Below, in pieces: positions 1 to 57,719 of a DNA stretch of 57,719 bases (positions are counted from its first letter, which is position 1; each line of letters begins with the position of its first letter). The stretch is from positions 1 to 57,719 of the forward strand of contig JBAZYS010000005.1 in NCBI GenBank assembly GCA_041659205.1, written 5' to 3'. The translations under genes were made by a program, and so were the position numbers. The notes below the pieces were generated by a model. That model was not told the DNA's origin and ran no database searches. It worked only from the letters and a program-made list of their open reading frames with translations. Origin of the DNA: Minisyncoccota bacterium. Its GTDB lineage: Bacteria > Patescibacteriota > Minisyncoccia > Phycocordibacterales > UBA9973.

Positions 1-84
<84 letters not shown>

Positions 85-105
85 ATTGAGTATTTGATTC
101 TAAAC

Positions 106-5960: not shown

Positions 5961-6020
5961 TTTAGTGTTTGGTTGAGATTTGCTTTTTATAATAAAAATG
6001 TATAGAATACGCTTATATTT

Positions 6021-7391
6021 ATGTTAAAAGCCTTTAAAAAAATAGTTTTAGCGTTATTAATACTTGTTCTCGGCGGGGGAATAGCCCTTTTTGTTTTTAA
6101 ATCAGAACCTAGATTAAACAAGAATTTTGCTAATACAAAGTCATTTCTCAAAAATCATCCATTTCGCTTAGGGCTTGATTTGTCTGGTGGTACCCATTTG
6201 ATATATAAAGCAGATACATCAGCAGTAGCAGCTGCGCAAGTTGGGGACTCAATGGCTGCACTTCGTGATATTATTGAGCGACGCATAAACCTCTTTGGAG
6301 TTTCTGAACCTGTCGTTCAGGTTCAACATGGTGGTTTCGTTTCTGGTGGGGGAGAACAATTGATTGTTGATCTTCCTGGTGTCACTGATGTAAAACAAGC
6401 TATCGATATGATTGGGCAAACACCTCTTCTAGAATTTAAAACTGAAGCTCCCAAAGGTTCTCCTCAAAAAGCGACAGTTGATAAAGATGGTAAAGTTTCC
6501 CTAGACATTGGTTCCCAATTTATTAATACTGAGCTCACGGGGCGATATTTACAAAAAGCAACTTTAGAATTTGATACTAATACTCGTGAGCCTAAAGTGA
6601 GTTTACAGTTCAATGATGTCGGCACAAAACTTTTCGCTCAAATCACAAAAGACAATGTCGGTAAAATGGTAGCAATTTATCTAGACGGGGCTCCGATATC
6701 TACGCCAGTTGTTCGTGAGGAAATTCCAAACGGGCAAGCTGTAATCTCTGGAAGCTTTACCCCAACAGAGGCAAAACAACTCGTCGGTAGATTAAATTCT
6801 GGTGCACTTCCTGTTCCAATAACCCTTCTCTCTACTCAAACCATTGGAGCTATCTTAGGAGATAGTGCAGTAAATGCTGGAGTGAAAGCAACTATTATTG
6901 GATTCTTACTTGTCGCACTTTTCCTTATTCTCTTATATCGTTTACCAGGATTGGTAGCAGTTGTTTCTCTTTCTATATTCGTAGCAATAATTTTAGCTCT
7001 TTTTAAATTATTGCCTGTTACCCTTACCGCTGCTGGTATCGCAGGATTTATAATTTCCATGGGTATTGCTGTTGATGCGAACGTGCTTATTTTTGAACGC
7101 ACGAAAGAAGAATTACGCACAGGACGAAGTATCACCGATGCTGTCTCTGTTGGTTTTTCTCGAGCCTGGGCTTCTATACGAGATTCAAATATTTCAAACT
7201 TTATTACAGCAGTTATTCTTTTCTGGTTTGGGACTTCCTTAATCAAAGGTTTTGCTTTAACTCTCGGTATGGGTGTTATCGTATCATTATTTAGTGCAAT
7301 TACTGCTACCAGAATTTTCCTCGGAGCACTTACTTTCATGGGTGAAGGAAAAGTTGCAAGATTTTTGTTTTCAAGTGGAACGAGTAAATAA
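6021..7391 (+). CDS. secD: Protein translocase subunit SecD
   Basis: RLGLDLSGG, GALPVP, VDANVLIFER motifs. Confidence 0.95.
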   Translation: MLKAFKKIVLALLILVLGGGIALFVFKSEPRLNKNFANTKSFLKNHPFRLGLDLSGGTHLIYKADTSAVAAAQVGDSMAALRDIIERRINLFGVSEPVVQVQHGGFVSGGGEQLIVDLPGVTDVKQAIDMIGQTPLLEFKTEAPKGSPQKATVDKDGKVSLDIGSQFINTELTGRYLQKATLEFDTNTREPKVSLQFNDVGTKLFAQITKDNVGKMVAIYLDGAPISTPVVREEIPNGQAVISGSFTPTEAKQLVGRLNSGALPVPITLLSTQTIGAILGDSAVNAGVKATIIGFLLVALFLILLYRLPGLVAVVSLSIFVAIILALFKLLPVTLTAAGIAGFIISMGIAVDANVLIFERTKEELRTGRSITDAVSVGFSRAWASIRDSNISNFITAVILFWFGTSLIKGFALTLGMGVIVSLFSAITATRIFLGALTFMGEGKVARFLFSSGTSK

Positions 7392-13365: not shown

Positions 13366-14013
13366 ATGGAAACAATTCCTAATCCGAGCGTGCAAGGTAC
13401 TATTTTCGGTGATACCTTTCTTAATGCAAAATATTTTAATCCAGCATACTGGTTTGATAAAGAAGCTGTCTATTTTAAAAAATTTACTGCTTTCGTTACT
13501 AGTGATGAGGTTACAAATCTTGAAAGAACCATTATTATTTTTTTTGCGATGTTTTTTTTGACGATAATTTGCTATACCATCATTCGAATGTTTGAGATTA
13601 GAGCGAAAGAACACAAGCATGTGCACCATGAAATACATGAATATGCACATAATAAAATGGAACAGGAAAAGAGATTACGGGAACAAGTCGGTGGTTCTAA
13701 AAATGAACATTGGAGTAAGGTTTTAAGTTACATTTTTTCACAACACGGAAGTGATTGGAAGCTCGCAATTATCGAAGCGGATTCTATGCTTGAAACTTTG
13801 ATGGATCAGCTTGGTTATCGAGGTGAAAATTTAGGAGAAAAATTAAAAATGGCAAATCAGGAAAATTTCCCAAATCTTACTACTGCTTGGGAGGTTCACA
13901 CTATCAGAAATAGGATAGCCCACGAAGGTCTGGCTTTTGAGCTTTCACAACACGAAGCCAAAAGAGTTATCGCTTTGTACGAGCAGATTTTCCATGATTA
14001 TGGCTTTATTTAA
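13366..14013 (+). CDS. Conserved hypothetical membrane protein
   Basis: One TM; WKLAIIEADSML...HTIRNRIAH region. Confidence 0.75.
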   Translation: METIPNPSVQGTIFGDTFLNAKYFNPAYWFDKEAVYFKKFTAFVTSDEVTNLERTIIIFFAMFFLTIICYTIIRMFEIRAKEHKHVHHEIHEYAHNKMEQEKRLREQVGGSKNEHWSKVLSYIFSQHGSDWKLAIIEADSMLETLMDQLGYRGENLGEKLKMANQENFPNLTTAWEVHTIRNRIAHEGLAFELSQHEAKRVIALYEQIFHDYGFI

Positions 14014-14165: not shown

Positions 14166-14236
14166 AGCGGGGTAGAGAAGAGGTATCTCGTAAGGCTCAT
14201 AACCTTAAGACTCACGTTCGATTCGTGACCCCGCAA
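14166..14236 (+). tRNA. tRNA-fMet (CAT), initiator type; CCA not encoded
   Basis: Cloverleaf; 1x72 mismatch (A-A), A11:U24, anticodon loop CTCATAA. Confidence 0.88.
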
Positions 14237-14282
14237 CTAGTCGGCAAGTGACATGCCTTATGTCTAATTGTCGAAGATAATG

Positions 14283-14311
14283 TATAATGTCGGCGTAGCT
14301 GTTTTGGTAGA
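14283..14311 (+). repeat. Duplicated 5' fragment of tRNA-Met with CAG-to-GTT change
   Basis: TATAATGTCGGCGTAGCT-GTT-TTGGTAGA versus TATAATGTCGGCGTAGCT-CAG-TTGGTAGA at 14335-14363. Confidence 0.85.
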
Positions 14312-14340
14312 TAACGGTTAAGGTACAACTTTGTTATAAT

Positions 14341-14413
14341 GTCGGCGTAGCTCAGTTGGTAGAGCGGAGGACTCATAAGCCTCAGGTCACAGGTTCAATC
14401 CCTGTCGCCGACA
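14341..14413 (+). tRNA. tRNA-Met elongator or tRNA-Ile2 (CAT)
   Basis: Cloverleaf GTCGGCG/CGCCGAC, anticodon CAT, T-loop TTCAATC; A31-G39 mismatch. Confidence 0.88.
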
Positions 14414-14434
14414 CCCTCAGAAAGAGGAAAATTT

Positions 14435-14506
14435 GCGGCTGTAGCTCAACGGTAGAGCACCCGCCTGTCACGTGGGAGGCCGTGGGGTCAGCACCCATCA
14501 GCCGCG
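14435..14506 (+). tRNA. tRNA-Asp (GTC)
   Basis: GCGGCTG/CAGCCGC acceptor, anticodon loop CTGTCAC, discriminator G; atypical T-loop GTCAGCA. Confidence 0.88.
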
Positions 14507-19569: not shown

Positions 19570-19642
19570 GCCGTTGTAGCTCAGTTGGTAGAGCACGATA
19601 TTGGTAATATCGAGGTCATCGGTTCAATCCCGATCAACGGCT
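19570..19642 (+). tRNA. tRNA-Thr (GGT)
   Basis: GCCGTTG/CAACGGC acceptor; anticodon arm CGATA-TTGGTAA-TATCG. Confidence 0.93.
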
Positions 19643-19657
19643 CCCGAAATAAAATAT

Positions 19658-19730
19658 GCCGCTGTAGCTCAGGTAGTAGAGCAACGAATTCGTAATTCGT
19701 GGGTCGGATGTGCAAGTCATCCCAGCGGCT
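19658..19730 (+). tRNA. tRNA-Thr (CGT)
   Basis: GCCGCTG/CAGCGGC acceptor; ACGAA-TTCGTAA-TTCGT; atypical T-loop TGCAAGT. Confidence 0.88.
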
Positions 19731-24003: not shown

Positions 24004-24074
24004 TTGCGAGACTTGGACTCGAACCAAGATAACCTCCTCCAGAGGGAGGTGTCCTACCATTAGACGATCTCGCA
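24004..24074 (-). tRNA. tRNA-Gln (CTG)
   Basis: TGCGAGA/TCTCGCA acceptor; CCTCC-CTCTGGA-GGAGG; T-loop TTCGAGT. Confidence 0.93.
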
Positions 24075-33741: not shown

Positions 33742-33957
33742 ATGGAACAAGAGTTACAAAATTTACAAAAGAAAATAGACGAGCAAGGTGTTAAAATAGA
33801 ATCCATTTATAAGTCTGTAGAAAAGACTAGGAAATATTTTTTAATGACTATGTGGATAACTTTAGTAACAATAGTTTTGCCGCTTATTGTACTCACTTTT
33901 GTATTACCATCGTTGATAGCTAGTTATACAAATACTTTAAGTGGATTAGGTTTATAA
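33742..33957 (+). CDS. Small hypothetical membrane protein
   Basis: Coiled N-terminus plus one TM. Confidence 0.7.
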   Translation: MEQELQNLQKKIDEQGVKIESIYKSVEKTRKYFLMTMWITLVTIVLPLIVLTFVLPSLIASYTNTLSGLGL

Positions 33958-36115: not shown

Positions 36116-37870
36116 TTATAAATTAAAAATATTTGTCAATAATCTTACGAACCAGCTTTCCTGAGAAGGCTCCACTTTTGTGGTGGGCGGAGGTATTTTT
36201 TCTGTATTTATTGGTGTAGTTATAATTATAGGTGTGTTTTTTTGTTTTTTTACAAATTTTTTCTGGACTTTAGTTATTTCTTGAATTTTAGGTTTTTCAA
36301 ATTTTTGCATTATTTGATTCCAAGTTTTACTAGATAGTATTGAGGAGACATAAGCAGTTTCCCAAATTTTAGTATTTATGTTCTCGTTCTTTATTCCACC
36401 ATCTATATCTTGGATTGTAGCGAGATAATCAAGGGGAGTATTGTCGCCCCTTTTCCAATCTTCAGGCTTTTCACCAAGGGCCGTAATACCTTCTAAAGCC
36501 CAGGCAGTAGAAGAAGCATTGCCCCAACCACCATTTTCTTTCTGTTTTTCTCTTAAGAAGTTTTTAGCTTTTTCTAAACTTTCCCCTATCAGAGGGGTAG
36601 GGGAAAAAGGGGAAAGGGCTTCGATGGCTGCACCCGTCATATCTACTGATTCATCAAAAGATCCGTTTTCCTTCTGACGGCTTAGAATAAAAGAAATGTC
36701 ATCGTTTATCATTTTTTCGTCTTGTGTATATCCTGAACTTTGTAAAACAATTAGAGCAAAAATATCATCATTGTCTTCATTTGCATCACCAAATTGTTTT
36801 CCATCAAAGCTTGTTATTATTTTTTCAATATAGTTTTCATTGTTTGTATTGTAGGGATTTAATCCGAGCGAAAGGAGAGCCATCGCATGTCTTTCGTTGT
36901 CAGTCAAAGACATGCCTTCTGTTTTATTCTCTACTGCATATCTAACCAATTTTATTGTTTGGTCTTGGTAATTACTGGAAGCAAAAGCGAGAGTTGCCCA
37001 ATCTGTATAAATATCCTGACCGAAAGAGCCGTTTTTTTCTTGCTGGGTGATTAAAAAATCAAAAGCTTTTTTTAGGTCAAATTTTGTTTTTTCAACAGTA
37101 ATAGGAATGATTTCTTGAGAAATTGGCGTACTTGATGGTTCATTAATAGGAATACTTCCACTCCCTCCTCTTGTTTCTGCTGGGGGGGTAGAGATTTGAA
37201 TATTTACATTGTTAGATGGCACACGTAATGTTTTACTGCCGATAGCATTTAATGAACCAGCTGTATTTAAAACTATAAAGCAAGTTCCGTCAGTGGCTGT
37301 GGTGCAAGTTTGAGTTCCAAGTGTAATTGTGGCTTCAGAGGATGGAGTCCAAAGCATATTATAATTTGCATCAAAGGTGCTTTCTTCTTCTGCAGTAAAT
37401 GTTATGGTGTCACCGATTATTCCAGAACTTTTTGAGGCTGAAATACGTAGTGGATAAGAATTGTAAGTTAAGAGAAGTTCTTCTCCGCTAGAAAGAGAGT
37501 GCTGATTAAGTCCAGTTCCTCCCAAGCTTAGATTATTAAACCAACTCCAAAATTTTGAAAAATCAGGAGTAGTTGTATATCCACTAAGTTCGTTCAACCA
37601 TCCACTTGGAGCATAATTCCAAGTCCAAGTATTTGATAATGCAGGTACGACTTGCTCTATGGCGCATTTACCATTTATGGTGATAGGTGCATCAGGGGCT
37701 GGTGATTCGGCACAAGCTGTAACTGTCTCTGGCCCATTAAATATAACAGTATCATCTGCATAAATTTTTAGAATTATGTTTACAGAATTATCCGCTAAAA
37801 CAATTTGTCGTGTAGAGAAAAACAATATAACTAATAAAACTACTTTTGAAATCTTTTTTATATTTTTCAT
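36116..37870 (-). CDS. Secreted protein: DUF4430-like beta domain + Ig-like domain + prenyltransferase-type alpha/alpha toroid (transcobalamin-like)
   Basis: Signal peptide; FWSWFNN...G......LSSGEELLLTY; four QW-like repeats (FLITQQEKNGSF, ILSRQKENGSF, FLREKQKENGGW, YLATIQDIDGG). Confidence 0.78.
   Translation of the reverse strand: MKNIKKISKVVLLVILFFSTRQIVLADNSVNIILKIYADDTVIFNGPETVTACAESPAPDAPITINGKCAIEQVVPALSNTWTWNYAPSGWLNELSGYTTTPDFSKFWSWFNNLSLGGTGLNQHSLSSGEELLLTYNSYPLRISASKSSGIIGDTITFTAEEESTFDANYNMLWTPSSEATITLGTQTCTTATDGTCFIVLNTAGSLNAIGSKTLRVPSNNVNIQISTPPAETRGGSGSIPINEPSSTPISQEIIPITVEKTKFDLKKAFDFLITQQEKNGSFGQDIYTDWATLAFASSNYQDQTIKLVRYAVENKTEGMSLTDNERHAMALLSLGLNPYNTNNENYIEKIITSFDGKQFGDANEDNDDIFALIVLQSSGYTQDEKMINDDISFILSRQKENGSFDESVDMTGAAIEALSPFSPTPLIGESLEKAKNFLREKQKENGGWGNASSTAWALEGITALGEKPEDWKRGDNTPLDYLATIQDIDGGIKNENINTKIWETAYVSSILSSKTWNQIMQKFEKPKIQEITKVQKKFVKKQKNTPIIITTPINTEKIPPPTTKVEPSQESWFVRLLTNIFNL
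36583..36603. repeat. Degenerate 21-bp palindrome copy inside the CDS
   Basis: CCCCTATCAGAGGGGTAGGGG (18/21) with TTT/AAA flanks like the 47792 copy. Confidence 0.6.
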
Positions 37871-37885
37871 TTCTTTTAAAATTAA

Positions 37886-38341
37886 TTAATAATTAAACTT
37901 TTCATACTTCCAAGACACAACGTCACCCCCTTTAATTTTATAATCTGAAACACCAATTTGAGCCTTAATTCCATTTACATAATAAATCCAGTTTTTTTCT
38001 CCGTTTCCTTTTATTCCATTAATGGAAACTATAAATTTCCCAATTCCTGCATAGTTTTTTTCTGTAAAGTTTATTTTTCCTTCGCTCCGAAGCTTATCCA
38101 TAAAATCGTAAACATTTGTTATTCCTAGGACTGTGCCTTCATAGCGTTTATCATTTATCTCTAAAATAGTTTTTATATTTGTGGATTGAGTATTTTCTGT
38201 ATTTGAAGCATTATTAAACACTTTTTCTTGAGGGAGTATTATTTTTTGTTTTTCAACCCCGTAGAAGAATAGAAAAGATACACTTAAAAAAGCCAAAAGA
38301 GTTATGATTATTATTTTGTTTTTTGTTGTTAATTTTGACAC
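37886..38341 (-). CDS. Membrane-anchored DUF4430 (transcobalamin-like C-terminal domain) protein; GTG start after the attenuator
   Basis: GKFIVSING...NWIYYVNGIKAQIGVSDYKIKGGDVVSWKY motif; N-terminal TM. Confidence 0.85.
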   Translation of the reverse strand: MSKLTTKNKIIIITLLAFLSVSFLFFYGVEKQKIILPQEKVFNNASNTENTQSTNIKTILEINDKRYEGTVLGITNVYDFMDKLRSEGKINFTEKNYAGIGKFIVSINGIKGNGEKNWIYYVNGIKAQIGVSDYKIKGGDVVSWKYEKFNY

Positions 38342-38369
38342 AAAAAAATTCTGTTTAGAGCAGAATTTT
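38342..38369 (-). terminator. Riboswitch-controlled attenuator
   Basis: Minus strand AAAATTCTG-CTCTAAA-CAGAATTTT plus T-tract; its CTGCTC is complementary to GAGCAG at 38395-38400. Confidence 0.8.
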
Positions 38370-38388
38370 GGGGCCCTCAAAAAAGAGG

Positions 38389-38506
38389 GAGATCCTGCTC
38401 GGGATTAATGAAATGATTGGTGTTCGGACTTGTTCCCTCCACCTGTTGGTGTTCGGGACTTACCGTAGCGGCACTGTACTGGAATCTAACCAGTTTCCCC
38501 AATCAA
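38389..38506 (-). ncRNA. Cobalamin riboswitch, compact variant
   Basis: Minus strand TGATTGG-GGAAACTGG-TTAGATT-CCAGT-ACAGTGCCGCTACGGTAA...AAGTCCGAACA-CCAATCA...GAGCAGGATCTC. Confidence 0.88.
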
Positions 38507-38534
38507 TTCTTATAATTTTCAAATGAACTCTCTT

Positions 38535-38562
38535 AGTATATACTTAGATTACATTATGTCAA
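38535..38562 (-). promoter_or_regulatory. Promoter of the riboswitch operon
   Basis: TTGACA-16 bp-TATACT on the minus strand. Confidence 0.6.
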
Positions 38563-47812: not shown

Positions 47813-47830
47813 AAAAGTGTGGATAACTTC

Positions 47831-47859
47831 TTGACATATACCCCCAGGGGGTATATGCT
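47831..47859 (+). promoter_or_regulatory. cop promoter with CsoR operator
   Basis: TTGACA-17 bp-TATGCT enclosing the palindrome ATATACCCCCAGGGGGTATAT (47836-47856). Confidence 0.85.
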
Positions 47860-55548: not shown

Positions 55549-56034
55549 ATGAATAATATATTTTTAAATGAACAGAGATGTAATTGCGGCAAACTTTTGC
55601 TGAAAGGTATTTTTCTAGATGCTACTTTAGAAATCAAATGTAAAAAATGTGGAGCGATGAACAGGGTAGATAATTTTTATTTCGATATTGACAAAGAAGG
55701 GATAATAAAATACATTAGTCCGTCTGTAGAAAAGGTTTATAAATTTCCACAAGAAATAGTTTTTGGAAAAAATTATTTTGAATGTGCTCCCATAGGAGAT
55801 AGAGCGGAATGTAAAAAGAACTTTAAATATTTTTCTGAAAACGAAAAAGCATACAGGATGAAGGACACTGCTTGTTTAAGTACTAATGGAGAGACTATTT
55901 TTAGTGAATTGTTTTTTACTCCCAATTTCAATGAAGCAGGTAAGTTTGTTGGATATCGAGTTGTGGCGTGGGTGACAAAAAAAGTTATATCCCTGTGGAT
56001 AACTTTTATATTAGTGTCCGGAACTTTGGTATAA
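55549..56034 (+). CDS. Com-family zinc ribbon fused to a PAS domain
   Basis: RCNCGKLL...LEIKCKKCGAMN followed by DKEGIIKYISPSVEKVY...FGKNY. Confidence 0.8.
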   Translation: MNNIFLNEQRCNCGKLLLKGIFLDATLEIKCKKCGAMNRVDNFYFDIDKEGIIKYISPSVEKVYKFPQEIVFGKNYFECAPIGDRAECKKNFKYFSENEKAYRMKDTACLSTNGETIFSELFFTPNFNEAGKFVGYRVVAWVTKKVISLWITFILVSGTLV

Positions 56035-56100
56035 TTAAAATACGAAGAACTAGAGGCTCATGAAGCCCATTATCATTTTTTTTGATTTGGGTTTTTATTT
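56027..56100 (+). promoter_or_regulatory. Extended -10 promoter plus two-state RNA leader
   Basis: TGGTATAAT (56027-56035); GGCT-CATGA-AGCC hairpin overlapping AAGCCCA/TGGGTTT stem plus T-tract. Confidence 0.55.
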
Positions 56101-56111
56101 TAGCTTTTTTT

Positions 56112-57719
56112 ATGAACTCTCATTTAAATAAAAAAGTATTTCCTGTTTTGTTTGTATTATTTGTCGTTTTTTCTTTTTTTACATTAATATCAAAAGCTGA
56201 GGCCACTGCATGTATAAGTGGAGTAGCTTGTACTGGTGGAACAGGAATATGGGTGGCTCCCGCTGGAGTAACTTCAGTTACGGCGGAAGTTTGGGGAGGT
56301 GGCGGTGGAGGGGCTGGAACAACTACAAATAATAATGGTGGTCAGTCTGGCGGAGGTGGAGGAGCATATTCAAAAAAAAATAATATATCAGTTGTACCTG
56401 GAAATAGTTATAACGTAAACATCGGAGCAGCAGGAACCACCACACAAGGGCCAGGCGGAGCAGGAGGTGATTCATTTTTCTGTAATGCAACCACAAACTG
56501 TGCCTCTATTACTGGGACTGCTGTGCAGTCTGGAGCAAAAGGTGGTGGCGGAGCAACATCACGTACTACTCATGGCATTGGGGGTGCGGCAGCTTCTGGC
56601 TTTGGTGATATAAAATTTAGTGGAGGTGATGGTGGTAATGGTGGTGCTCCAACAATTGGTTCTGGTGGCGGAGGAGGTGCAGGAGGAAGCACCGCTGATG
56701 GTGGCATTGGAGGAAATGGAAGTGCTGGAGTAGCGGGTACAGCTGGTGTAGGTAATGACGGAGGTGGAAACGGTGGAGCTGGGCGAACTAGTTCTGGAAC
56801 AGGAAATGTTGGAGTAGTTCCTGGCGGTGGCGGCGGTGGAGCATACGTCGGAAGTAATGCTAATCAAACTGGTGGTGCTGGTACTGCCGGAAGAGTTATT
56901 CTTACTTATACTGCCGATGTAACTCCACCTGCAGTTTCTGGTGTTACATCAAGCACGGCAAATGGTACATACGCAGCTGGGACAGTTATTCCTATTCAAG
57001 TAAATTTTTCAGAAAGTGTAAACGTTATAGGGACACCTCAACTTACAATATCTACGGGTACTCCAGCGACGACCGTCCTTAATTATACTTCTGGCTCAGG
57101 TACATCAACTCTTACTTTTAATTATACAGTTGCTGCAAGTAATACTTCAGCTGATTTGGATTATTCTGCGACGACATCCCTTGCTTTAAATGCGGGTACA
57201 ATAAAAGATGCAGCAGGGAATAATGCGACACTTACTCTTGCAGCTCCAGGCGCATCGGGTTCTCTTGGTTTTAATAAAAATATTGTAATTGTTACTACTT
57301 TCACCCTCACATATTCTGCCGGGGCAAACGGTAGTATCGTCGGCACCACTCCTCAAACAGTGAACTACGGAGCTTCTGGTACTCTCGTCACCGCGACTCC
57401 ATCTCTCGGATATCACTTCGTCTCTTGGAGTGATGCATATCCTACGGCTGCTCGTACTGATACCAATGTCACTGGAAATATTTCGGTCACCGCTAGTTTC
57501 GCAGTTGATACTTTCACCCTCACATATTCTGCCGGTGCAAACGGTAGTATCGTCGGCACCACTCCACAAACTGTAAACTACGGAGCTTCTGGAACTTTAG
57601 TCACCGCGACTCCATCTCTCGGATATCACTTCGTCTCTTGGAGTGATGCATATCCTACGGCCGCTCGTACTGATACTAATGTCACGGGAAATATTACAGT
57701 GACGGCCACTTTCGCAGTT
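56112..57719 (+). CDS. Large secreted adhesin-like protein (Gly-rich domain, Ig-like domain, InlB B-type repeats); runs off the window end, so missing from the ORF track
   Basis: Signal peptide MNSHLNKK...KAEA; WVAPAGVTSVTAEVWGGGGGG; DVTPPAV; TFTLTYSAGANGSI...GYHFVSWSD. Confidence 0.85.
   Translation, partial: MNSHLNKKVFPVLFVLFVVFSFFTLISKAEATACISGVACTGGTGIWVAPAGVTSVTAEVWGGGGGGAGTTTNNNGGQSGGGGGAYSKKNNISVVPGNSYNVNIGAAGTTTQGPGGAGGDSFFCNATTNCASITGTAVQSGAKGGGGATSRTTHGIGGAAASGFGDIKFSGGDGGNGGAPTIGSGGGGGAGGSTADGGIGGNGSAGVAGTAGVGNDGGGNGGAGRTSSGTGNVGVVPGGGGGGAYVGSNANQTGGAGTAGRVILTYTADVTPPAVSGVTSSTANGTYAAGTVIPIQVNFSESVNVIGTPQLTISTGTPATTVLNYTSGSGTSTLTFNYTVAASNTSADLDYSATTSLALNAGTIKDAAGNNATLTLAAPGASGSLGFNKNIVIVTTFTLTYSAGANGSIVGTTPQTVNYGASGTLVTATPSLGYHFVSWSDAYPTAARTDTNVTGNISVTASFAVDTFTLTYSAGANGSIVGTTPQTVNYGASGTLVTATPSLGYHFVSWSDAYPTAARTDTNVTGNITVTATFAV
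57297..57719 (+). repeat. Near-identical 213-bp (71-aa) tandem repeats
   Basis: Units start at 57297 and 57510 (ACTTTCACCCTCACATATTCTGCCGG). Confidence 0.9.

Follow-up and report, generated by a model that had tools for sequence, protein, structure and literature searches.

A Com-type zinc ribbon–PAS protein and a candidate two-state RNA leader in Patescibacteria

The DNA analysed here (the window) is a stretch of 57,719 nt from a Minisyncoccota bacterium, comprising positions 1–57,719 of the forward strand of contig JBAZYS010000005.1 (assembly GCA_041659205.1). Near its 3' end lies a gene for a small protein in which a zinc ribbon like that of the phage Mu protein Com is joined to a PAS domain. 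This gene is followed on the same strand by a short leader and by the first part of a gene for a large secreted protein. The leader contains an RNA element with two overlapping structures, referred to here as hairpin A and stem B. Of the 21 distinct loci that carry a full family gene (the window included), all of them from Patescibacteria, also known as the Candidate Phyla Radiation (CPR), 20 have an element of this kind directly 3' of the regulator gene and in its orientation. Taking this together with a pattern of covariation that links the two structures, we consider it rather probable that regulator and leader form a one-component switch acting at the level of RNA. The ribbon would bind hairpin A, stem B would thereby be blocked, transcription would read through into the target gene, and the PAS domain would modulate the binding. 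The evidence is computational throughout.

The leader and its conservation

In the window, the core of hairpin A (GAGGCUCAUGAAGCCC, 56053–56068, + strand) has a 4-bp stem, in which GGCU (56055–56058) pairs with AGCC (56064–56067), and a loop CAUGA, with an invariant GA lying 5' of the stem. It is the proposed protein-binding anti-terminator. Stem B occupies positions 56062–56095 and its U-tract 56092–56101 (together 56062–56101, + strand). Stem B has a predicted energy of −11.8 kcal/mol (z = −4.45, none of 200 shuffled sequences being as good) and is followed by UUUUUAUUUU. It thus has the two features of an intrinsic terminator, a stable GC-containing stem-loop and then a run of U, and in the related loci the stems are stronger and the runs are of 6–8 U. 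The 5' arm of stem B reuses the 3' arm of hairpin A. Since nucleotides 56064–56067 are common to both, the two structures exclude each other. An earlier reading of this DNA (the original prediction) had proposed just such a mutually exclusive pair with a following T-tract, and the features lie where it placed them.

The leader is preceded by an extended −10 promoter, TGGTATAAT (56027–56035, + strand), which overlaps the TAA stop codon of the regulator gene (56032–56034). Where chance would give 4.6 copies of the motif TGNTATAAT, the window has 14, an enrichment of about 3-fold, and 12 of the copies are on the gene-rich + strand. It is thus the usual promoter form of the genome. A box of the type TGnTATAAT is found 15–19 nt upstream of hairpin A in most of the related loci as well, which indicates a leader, as opposed to a mere 3' end of the upstream gene. 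With a start site about 7 nt beyond the −10 box and the ATG of the downstream gene at 56112, the leader is about 70 nt long, in agreement with the length given in the original prediction. The −10 box, which has no −35 box with it, went uncalled in a generic promoter and terminator scan, whose only flag was a reading of hairpin A on the minus strand that we consider spurious.

For the comparison of loci, the genomic context of relatives of the regulator was combined with one genome per GTDB species, and a covariance model (R1) was built from 32 copies of the element. The conserved unit consists of a TGnTATAAT-type −10 box, 15–19 nt of spacing, the motif GAGGCUC-NN-GAAGCCC, the 3' half of which opens a GC-rich stem, and finally 5–8 U. 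The GC-rich stem with its run of U is nearly universal among the CPR copies. R1 scores at least 44 bits in 18 of the loci and less in two. In one locus with a family gene (L013) a downstream element was not found. Within the 57.7 kb of the window there is a single copy, at 56043–56103 (56.5 bits, E = 8e-13), and the next best match scores 15.8 bits. Over 500 kb of related loci, strong matches are found only beside zinc-ribbon genes and in their orientation, with a single exception (L035, described below). For this element, a scan of the whole window at the gathering thresholds of Rfam 15 gave no match, and a permissive scan of positions 55900–56250 returned only matches at chance level (E of at least 0.47).

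In the alignment of these copies, hairpin A is paired in 99.2% of the cells, with compensatory changes at three of its four pairs and with G·U wobbles present. The double changes, found in 13 cells, alternate between GC and AU at columns 13:26 and 14:25, and between CG, UG and UA at columns 15:24. None of 500 shuffles reached the observed covariation score, and sliding the partner by one column reduces the pairing from 99% to 48–67%. The stem variants found are GGCU/AGCC, GGUU/AGCC, GGUU/AACC, GACU/AGUC and AGCU/AGCU. The outer pairs of stem B also covary across the 32 copies. Columns 24, 25 and 26 covary both with their hairpin A partners (15, 14 and 13) and with their stem B partners (51, 50 and 49), a three-way covariation that is the pattern expected from selection for two mutually exclusive folds. 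The G·U pairs and the constant strand speak for RNA and against a DNA operator. Thermodynamically, all copies favour the terminator fold.

The element is not always single. It is found in tandem at four loci (L004, L006, L008 and L017), and at three (L010, L014 and L017) there are additional copies before later genes of the cluster. In 13 loci, not including the window, the regulator gene has a copy with hairpin A only in its own 5' leader, and this suggests that it is autoregulated. In the closest relatives a third half-site, GAAGUUC, lies ahead of hairpin A with the same 9-nt period (L001, 6896–6920; L004, 6895–6919), and together with the first arm of hairpin A it could make an alternative hairpin, giving a three-step arrangement of the form 1:2 / 2:3 / 3:4. 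In the window this half-site is degenerate (GAAGAAC; 56044–56068).

The gene that follows the leader in the window starts at ATG 56112 and runs off the end of the stretch (56112–57719, + strand, 536 codons of its 5' part). It has a signal-peptide-like N-terminus, as read from the sequence, followed by a glycine-rich domain and InlB-B-repeat/Flg_new modules (Pfam Gly_rich_2, Flg_new_2 and Flg_new). These modules are encoded by a 213-nt tandem repeat of two units with 92% identity (57296–57719, + strand). The evidence supports a large secreted or surface protein, and the label of adhesin, used for it originally, is a guess. A suggestion made with the original prediction was to see whether homologues of the regulator are likewise followed by the hairpin, the overlapping stem and genes for surface proteins. 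The comparison of loci bears this out. Alongside the 20 of 21 loci with the element, the next gene on the same strand has a signal-peptide-like N-terminus in 15 of the 21, and its product is usually very large (447 to more than 2000 residues; in one further context, more than 2019 residues). These secreted proteins are not orthologues of one another, and contain fn3, Big_6/Big_13 or dockerin domains, or nothing recognisable. In the remaining loci the element is followed by a polysaccharide flippase/glycosyltransferase operon, an NMO-like enzyme or response-regulator-type proteins. Two AT-rich, CPR-like loci have the promoter and element before a small heat-shock-like protein (MSIIKWEPFGE...) or a 113-residue protein (L081, 514–554; L092, 3051–3091), and the sequence covered at both contains no zinc-ribbon gene. 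The regulon may reach beyond surface proteins.

The regulator family and its likeness to Com

The regulator of the window is a protein of 161 residues (55549–56034, + strand), identified by Pfam, NCBIfam, its homologues and alignments A1 and A4. Residues 7–42 (55567–55674, + strand) match the Zn_ribbon_Com family (PF10122) with 24.3 bits, a small margin above the cut-off of 22.9, and provide four cysteines (Cys11, Cys13, Cys31 and Cys34). This is the proposed RNA-binding output domain. The following PAS domain (55678–55977, + strand), proposed as a sensor or dimerisation module, is matched by PAS_9 (residues 44–139, 27.1 bits against a cut-off of 27), by PAS (23.2 against 22.6) and by PAS_4 in Pfam, and by the PAS S-box model TIGR00229 in NCBIfam (23.0 against 22.9). 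An AlphaFold2 model built on 14 sequences has a mean predicted local distance difference test score (pLDDT) of 76.8, and shows the strands of a β-ribbon in residues 8–30, a PAS fold in 44–143 and a disordered tail in 146–161. Foldseek recognised only the PAS part of the model, matching it to PAS-B domains with a TM-score of about 0.8 and an rmsd of about 2 Å. No ANTAR domain was matched in Pfam or NCBIfam, nor were PRD, CAT or comparable domains detected by Pfam.

In BLASTP, the ribbon of the window is identical to Mu Com at 13 of 26 positions, and the two have in common the signature KLL(F/L)K...(I/L)EI(K/R)C..C. The four cysteines are invariant across the family alignment. The first knuckle is CxC, one residue shorter than the CxxC of Mu, where the four cysteines are Cys6, Cys9, Cys26 and Cys29. 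A search of the PDB for a solved structure of Com with which to compare the fold found none.

A search over 5.8 billion proteins found 47 relatives, nearly all of them 272–281 residues long, from Patescibacteria. Those with a name are annotated as 'PAS domain S-box protein' and come from metagenome-assembled genomes (MAGs) of Paceibacterota, Magasanikbacteria or Patescibacteria. The general plan, in about 278 residues, is a zinc ribbon, a first PAS domain (PAS1), a linker and a second PAS domain (PAS2). Zn_ribbon_Com is matched by 39 of 41 relatives at E ≤ 0.01 (26.1 bits in the relative P0003). One MAG contains two paralogous pairs of regulator and target (L020 and L024).

The copy in the window departs from this plan. 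It lacks 133 columns of the family alignment, corresponding to PAS1 and the linker, so that its single PAS domain is the PAS2 of the family, and it has 15 extra residues at the C-terminus. A DNA alignment with the two closest loci (A4) shows that the deletion of 133 codons is in frame and that the ancestral stop is gone: the relatives end in ..AAAGTCTTAA, where the window has ..AAAAAAAGTTATATCC. As a result, the reading frame continues to the TAA within the −10 box. The read-through extension (VISLWITFILVSGTLV, 55984–56031, + strand; 16 residues in the model, of which 15 lie past the stop of the relatives) has a pLDDT below 50 for residues 146–161, and is probably not functional. The 161-residue form was found on the window contig only. 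Judged by its sequence, the regulator is thus a derived copy of the Zn-PAS-PAS family, and given that it has no PAS1, has lost its stop and has no hairpin A in its own 5' leader, its response to a signal may be altered or lost. The original description of a Com-like CxC...CxxC finger fused to PAS is borne out by Pfam, NCBIfam, AlphaFold2 and Foldseek, and had overlooked the internal deletion and the lost stop.

Ribbons of this type also occur elsewhere on their own (43–64 residues), with one PAS domain (157 residues; L030–L032) or C-terminal to a receiver domain, which is the distribution expected of an output domain. The receiver fusion is a protein of 182 residues with a C-terminal Com-like zinc ribbon (L035, 6587–7135), and a single copy of the RNA element lies 4.5 kb from its gene, on the opposite strand.

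The form of hairpin A can be compared with what is known of Com itself. Selection of RNA ligands for a Com zinc finger in vitro (SELEX) gave a recognition loop CC(N)2-3GAG within a hairpin, the GA being essential (Nowacka et al., 2019; PMC6483171). In the same data, protection covers the GA dinucleotide and the first C of the loop, two copies of GAG(N)2CC are usual in the RNAs that were selected, and the natural site in Mu abuts a translation-inhibition stem (PMC6483171). Hairpin A has a loop C-N-N-G-A closed by U-A (U-C-N-N-G-A-A), a second invariant GA 5' of the stem, and two half-sites of the form GARGCYC. It therefore matches the published recognition loop in form. The site in Mu, GAAUGCCUGCGAGCAUC followed by CCCAC...GUGGG, has the same form as hairpin A but a different sequence. 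GAGGCUC-NN-GAAGCCC was not found in the Mu com-mom region, and the element is thus not simply the Mu site.

The two systems are alike in having a four-cysteine ribbon, a regulator gene directly upstream of its target, and a hairpin with a C..GA loop set against an inhibitory stem-loop. They differ in several respects. Com is a stand-alone protein of about 40–62 residues, whereas the window protein is fused to a PAS domain (its relatives have one or two, and elsewhere there is a receiver). The gene in the window is chromosomal, in a member of the Patescibacteria and with no phage genes nearby, and its target has its own promoter, where Com is co-transcribed with its target. Hairpin A shares nucleotides with the inhibitory stem, where the site in Mu only adjoins it, and the stem in the window is terminator-like. 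The proposed targets in Patescibacteria are mostly large secreted proteins and not a DNA-modification enzyme. To speak of a domesticated Com system, as the original prediction did, presupposes a direction of transfer.

A scan of metagenomes that used the RNA motif alone (GAGGCTCNNGAAGCCC with the terminator arm) leads back to Com homologues. It returned 116 stretches, of which 80 loci were analysed, most of them not from CPR bacteria (GC content 0.45–0.6). A local profile of the ribbon found a Com-like open reading frame (ORF) in 20 of the 80, and in nearly every case this ORF is on the strand of the motif and stops no more than 400 nt before it. ORFs of 39–51 residues that end 2–36 nt before the motif are assigned to Zn_ribbon_Com by Pfam with 32–39 bits. 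Thirty-three viral contigs from IMG/VR contain the motif, 12 of them with a Com-like ORF within 400 nt upstream. The genes downstream on these viral contigs look like late genes, as judged from the size and N-terminal sequence of their products, and on phage and other contigs the start codon of the downstream gene is embedded in the element or abuts it.

About 26 of the non-CPR loci (GC about 0.5–0.57; for example L052, L054, L059, L062 and L083) form a group with a Cys-rich protein of 80 residues, a tandem hairpin A and a sigma-70-like ORF. The Cys-rich proteins (CRCPHDGKKLAEIAR...IQCxKCK; CRCPHDGKKL...IQCxKCK) end 30–47 nt before the tandem hairpins. They have no match in Pfam, and their cysteine pattern makes them probable split or elaborated Com-like ribbons. 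The sigma-70-like proteins are 250–277 residues long with weak r2/r4 matches, and start at an ATG inside the 3' arm of stem B.

The proposed switch and its alternatives

On the basis of these observations, we propose the following sequence of events. Transcription from the separate promoter at 56027–56035 would start the leader of about 70 nt, which by default would fold into stem B with its U-tract, so that transcription stops before the gene at 56112. When active, the zinc ribbon would bind the nascent hairpin A and so withhold the AAGCC segment from stem B. The terminator would be prevented from forming, and RNA polymerase would read into the gene for the secreted protein. The PAS domain or domains would set the RNA-binding activity upon a signal, probably by way of dimerisation onto the two GA-containing half-sites, GAGGCUC and GAAGCCC. 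We infer the binding of the ribbon to hairpin A, the effect of this binding in favour of read-through, the modulation by PAS and the biological role of the target.

The logic of such a switch has precedents. In the ANTAR antiterminators EutV, NasR and AmiR, a sensor or receiver is combined with an RNA-binding output, and the small hairpin on which this output acts overlaps a terminator in its 5' arm (PMC3369931, PMC7496416). The likeness is one of logic only, and tandem sites and multi-gene regulons occur among them too. They differ in that the RNA site in the window is a single 4-bp pentaloop hairpin with a 5' GA, not two hexaloop hairpins, and in that the output here is a zinc ribbon. In regulators of the BglG/SacY type (CAT-PRD), and in TRAP, PyrR and HutP, a protein also decides termination by way of one of two exclusive leader structures; their protein folds are unrelated and their RNA targets different. 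One-component regulators with PAS domains resemble the window protein in joining a PAS sensor to a nucleic-acid-binding output within one small cytoplasmic protein, and differ from it in that its output is an N-terminal Com-type RNA-binding zinc ribbon. The openly searchable literature (most subscription journals lie outside it), consulted for Com-PAS fusions, PF10122 regulators and antitermination in CPR bacteria, gave only Com of Mu and Haemophilus and the analogous ANTAR work. Within this scope, the sensor-fused Com architecture and the conserved RNA motif appear to be new, while Com-type recognition and ANTAR-like logic are known.

The most serious alternative for the mechanism is translational control of the kind seen in com/mom of Mu, which we regard as unlikely. 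Stem B and the pairing that flanks it would hide the start region, binding of the protein to hairpin A would open it, and the U-tract would be incidental or secondary. In the roughly 26 non-CPR loci the ATG does lie in the 3' arm of stem B, just as the GUG of mom lies within the translation-inhibition stem of Mu (PMC6483171), and in several CPR loci the ATG is 3–10 nt past the U-tract. Only 2 of the 41 genes in the window have a Shine-Dalgarno-like motif upstream, so an unstructured start region would matter, and the minimum-free-energy fold of the window leader also pairs 56052–56058 with 56102–56108, just ahead of the ATG. This reading has to accommodate a start codon that in the window lies 17 nt beyond stem B, and that in many CPR loci is 40–120 nt away or separated from it by a second tandem element; and almost all CPR copies have the GC-rich stem with 5–8 U that typifies an intrinsic terminator. 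It is less likely still that the element is a free-standing gene for a small RNA of about 55–60 nt with a function in trans, such as titrating the zinc-ribbon protein in the manner of a decoy. It does have its own extended −10 box and a strong terminator at constant spacing, copies occur in tandem and dispersed, some of them 90–300 nt from the next start codon, and the default transcript would indeed end as a short RNA. Against this, its orientation is always that of the downstream gene, with no second promoter evident between the two in most loci; on phage and other contigs the element contains or touches the start codon of the gene that follows; and the three-way covariation implies selection for an alternative to the terminator fold.

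The least credible of the alternatives is a DNA operator, GARGYUC-NN-GAAGCYC, to which the ribbon would bind as a transcription factor, while the stem-loop would do no more than terminate the upstream gene. In its favour, DNA binding is known among zinc ribbons, the motif is close to the promoter, and the motif also reads as GARGCYC repeated directly every 9 nt. The half-sites, however, differ from one another in such a way as to keep Watson–Crick or G·U complementarity, and G·U wobbles are meaningless in duplex DNA. Moreover, the site follows the −10 box and is transcribed, invariably in the sense orientation; covariation ties its 3' half to the 3' arm of the terminator as well; and RNA binding is established for Com, whose loop motif matches. 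A different kind of doubt concerns the window alone, where the regulator gene might be a damaged relic and the leader only a constitutive terminator or a leaky leader. We think this rather unlikely, and give it somewhat more weight than translational control. It would account for the 133-codon internal deletion, the lost ancestral stop with read-through into the promoter, the missing self-leader hairpin and the restriction of the 161-residue form to one contig. The deletion is nevertheless in frame and has left PAS2 and all four cysteines untouched, and AlphaFold2 models the product with confidence. Natural proteins with a ribbon and a single PAS domain exist, at 157 residues and with flanking elements (L030–L032), and the element of the window scores like those of its relatives (56.5 bits).

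Returning to the antitermination switch that we prefer, a number of observations weigh against it. In the window alone, hairpin A is within chance (−4.3 kcal/mol, z = −1.08, 38 of 200 shuffles as good), so that its significance rests only on the other loci, and this hairpin of 4 bp must win kinetically over a stem of 11–12 bp. Stem B was not called by the generic promoter and terminator scanner. On the side of the protein, the Pfam scores barely exceed their thresholds, the first knuckle differs from that of Mu Com (CxC against CxxC), and the regulator of the window may be decaying, having neither PAS1 nor the original stop nor the self-leader hairpin. As to the RNA, the mom site of Mu differs in sequence from the element. 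The stand-alone ribbons of 43–64 residues in other Patescibacteria (L036–L049) have no element within 7 kb, as is the case for stand-alone ribbons throughout L036–L051, and many of the metagenomic loci with the motif have no zinc-ribbon ORF (many of these are short, and some have several kb of sequence upstream). Finally, the start codon inside stem B in the large non-CPR group points, for that group, to translational control.

Surroundings of the switch and its wider meaning

The original prediction noted that there are no phage genes nearby, and this holds for the 20 kb upstream of the regulator gene, where none was seen. These 20 kb contain housekeeping genes: MacAB-like HlyD/FtsX/ABC genes come first, and farther upstream are GlmS, a copper ATPase operon, RNase J, HtrA and similar genes. 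A partial 5S rRNA at the start of the window (1–85) and six tRNA genes (14166–14506, 19570–19730 and 24004–24074) fit with an ordinary chromosomal region. A cobalamin riboswitch (38398–38548, − strand, 38.3 bits in Rfam) lies upstream of two minus-strand ORFs (37886–38380 and 36116–37870), the second of which carries a squalene-hopene-cyclase-C-like domain. At 47838–47856 (+ strand) a palindrome, ATACCCCCAGGGGGTAT, is located 3' of a TTGACA box and ahead of a small ORF and a copper P-type ATPase/HMA/cupredoxin cluster; we take it to resemble a CsoR-type operator. Several + strand genes have TATAAT within 20 nt of their ATG (for example at 13366, 17080, 34168 and 38523), which suggests that many of the mRNAs are leaderless.

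A further box, TGTGGATAA (55994–56002, + strand), is the reverse complement of the DnaA-box consensus and lies 36 nt upstream of the −10 box of the leader. It is found at the same place in six related loci (L001, L004, L008, L011, L017 and L021), and with one mismatch in two more (L006 and L012), TGTGGATAA(CTT) being placed 36–41 nt upstream of the −10 boxes. Exact copies number three in the window (0.79 expected), each of them on the + strand (33851–33859, 47818–47826 and 55994–56002). Two of these are intergenic and the third is inside the read-through extension of the regulator ORF. We considered the box as a part of the switch and rejected this, since two unrelated promoters in the window have it upstream too. 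It seems to accompany promoters generally in this lineage, as an upstream element. At three loci, (TA)n microsatellites stand beside the promoters or leaders of regulators or targets (L001, about 6860–6880; L006, about 5975–6000; L014, about 6975–6995), and the length of these tracts could vary.

Com and mom have so far been treated as a curiosity of Mu-like phages, and the results suggest a wider role. More generally, we put forward, tentatively and at a little short of even confidence, that Com ribbons are a widespread and unrecognised RNA-binding output domain of bacterial signalling, that their fusions to PAS and receiver domains in Patescibacteria are one- and two-component riboregulators which switch giant surface proteins and some other genes through a common hairpin/terminator motif, and that many phages, with stand-alone Com proteins, time late genes by means of the same motif. 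A single RNA motif that is absent from Rfam is suggested as the natural target of a large branch of Com proteins in phages and bacteria, and its loop agrees with that obtained by ligand selection. The use of the ribbon in CPR bacteria as the output of a sensor, whether PAS or receiver, would add a class of signal-dependent RNA-binding regulators beside the ANTAR and BglG types.

Gene regulation in CPR bacteria is almost unexplored, and in the present case the regulator, its RNA site and its targets can all be named from sequence alone. Most of the targets are predicted to be huge secreted proteins, which makes them prime candidates for contact with the host. If the proposal is correct, these bacteria would have a surface proteome under the control of a signal, possibly governing attachment to the host, and the element and its protein would constitute a new RNA family together with its cognate regulator.

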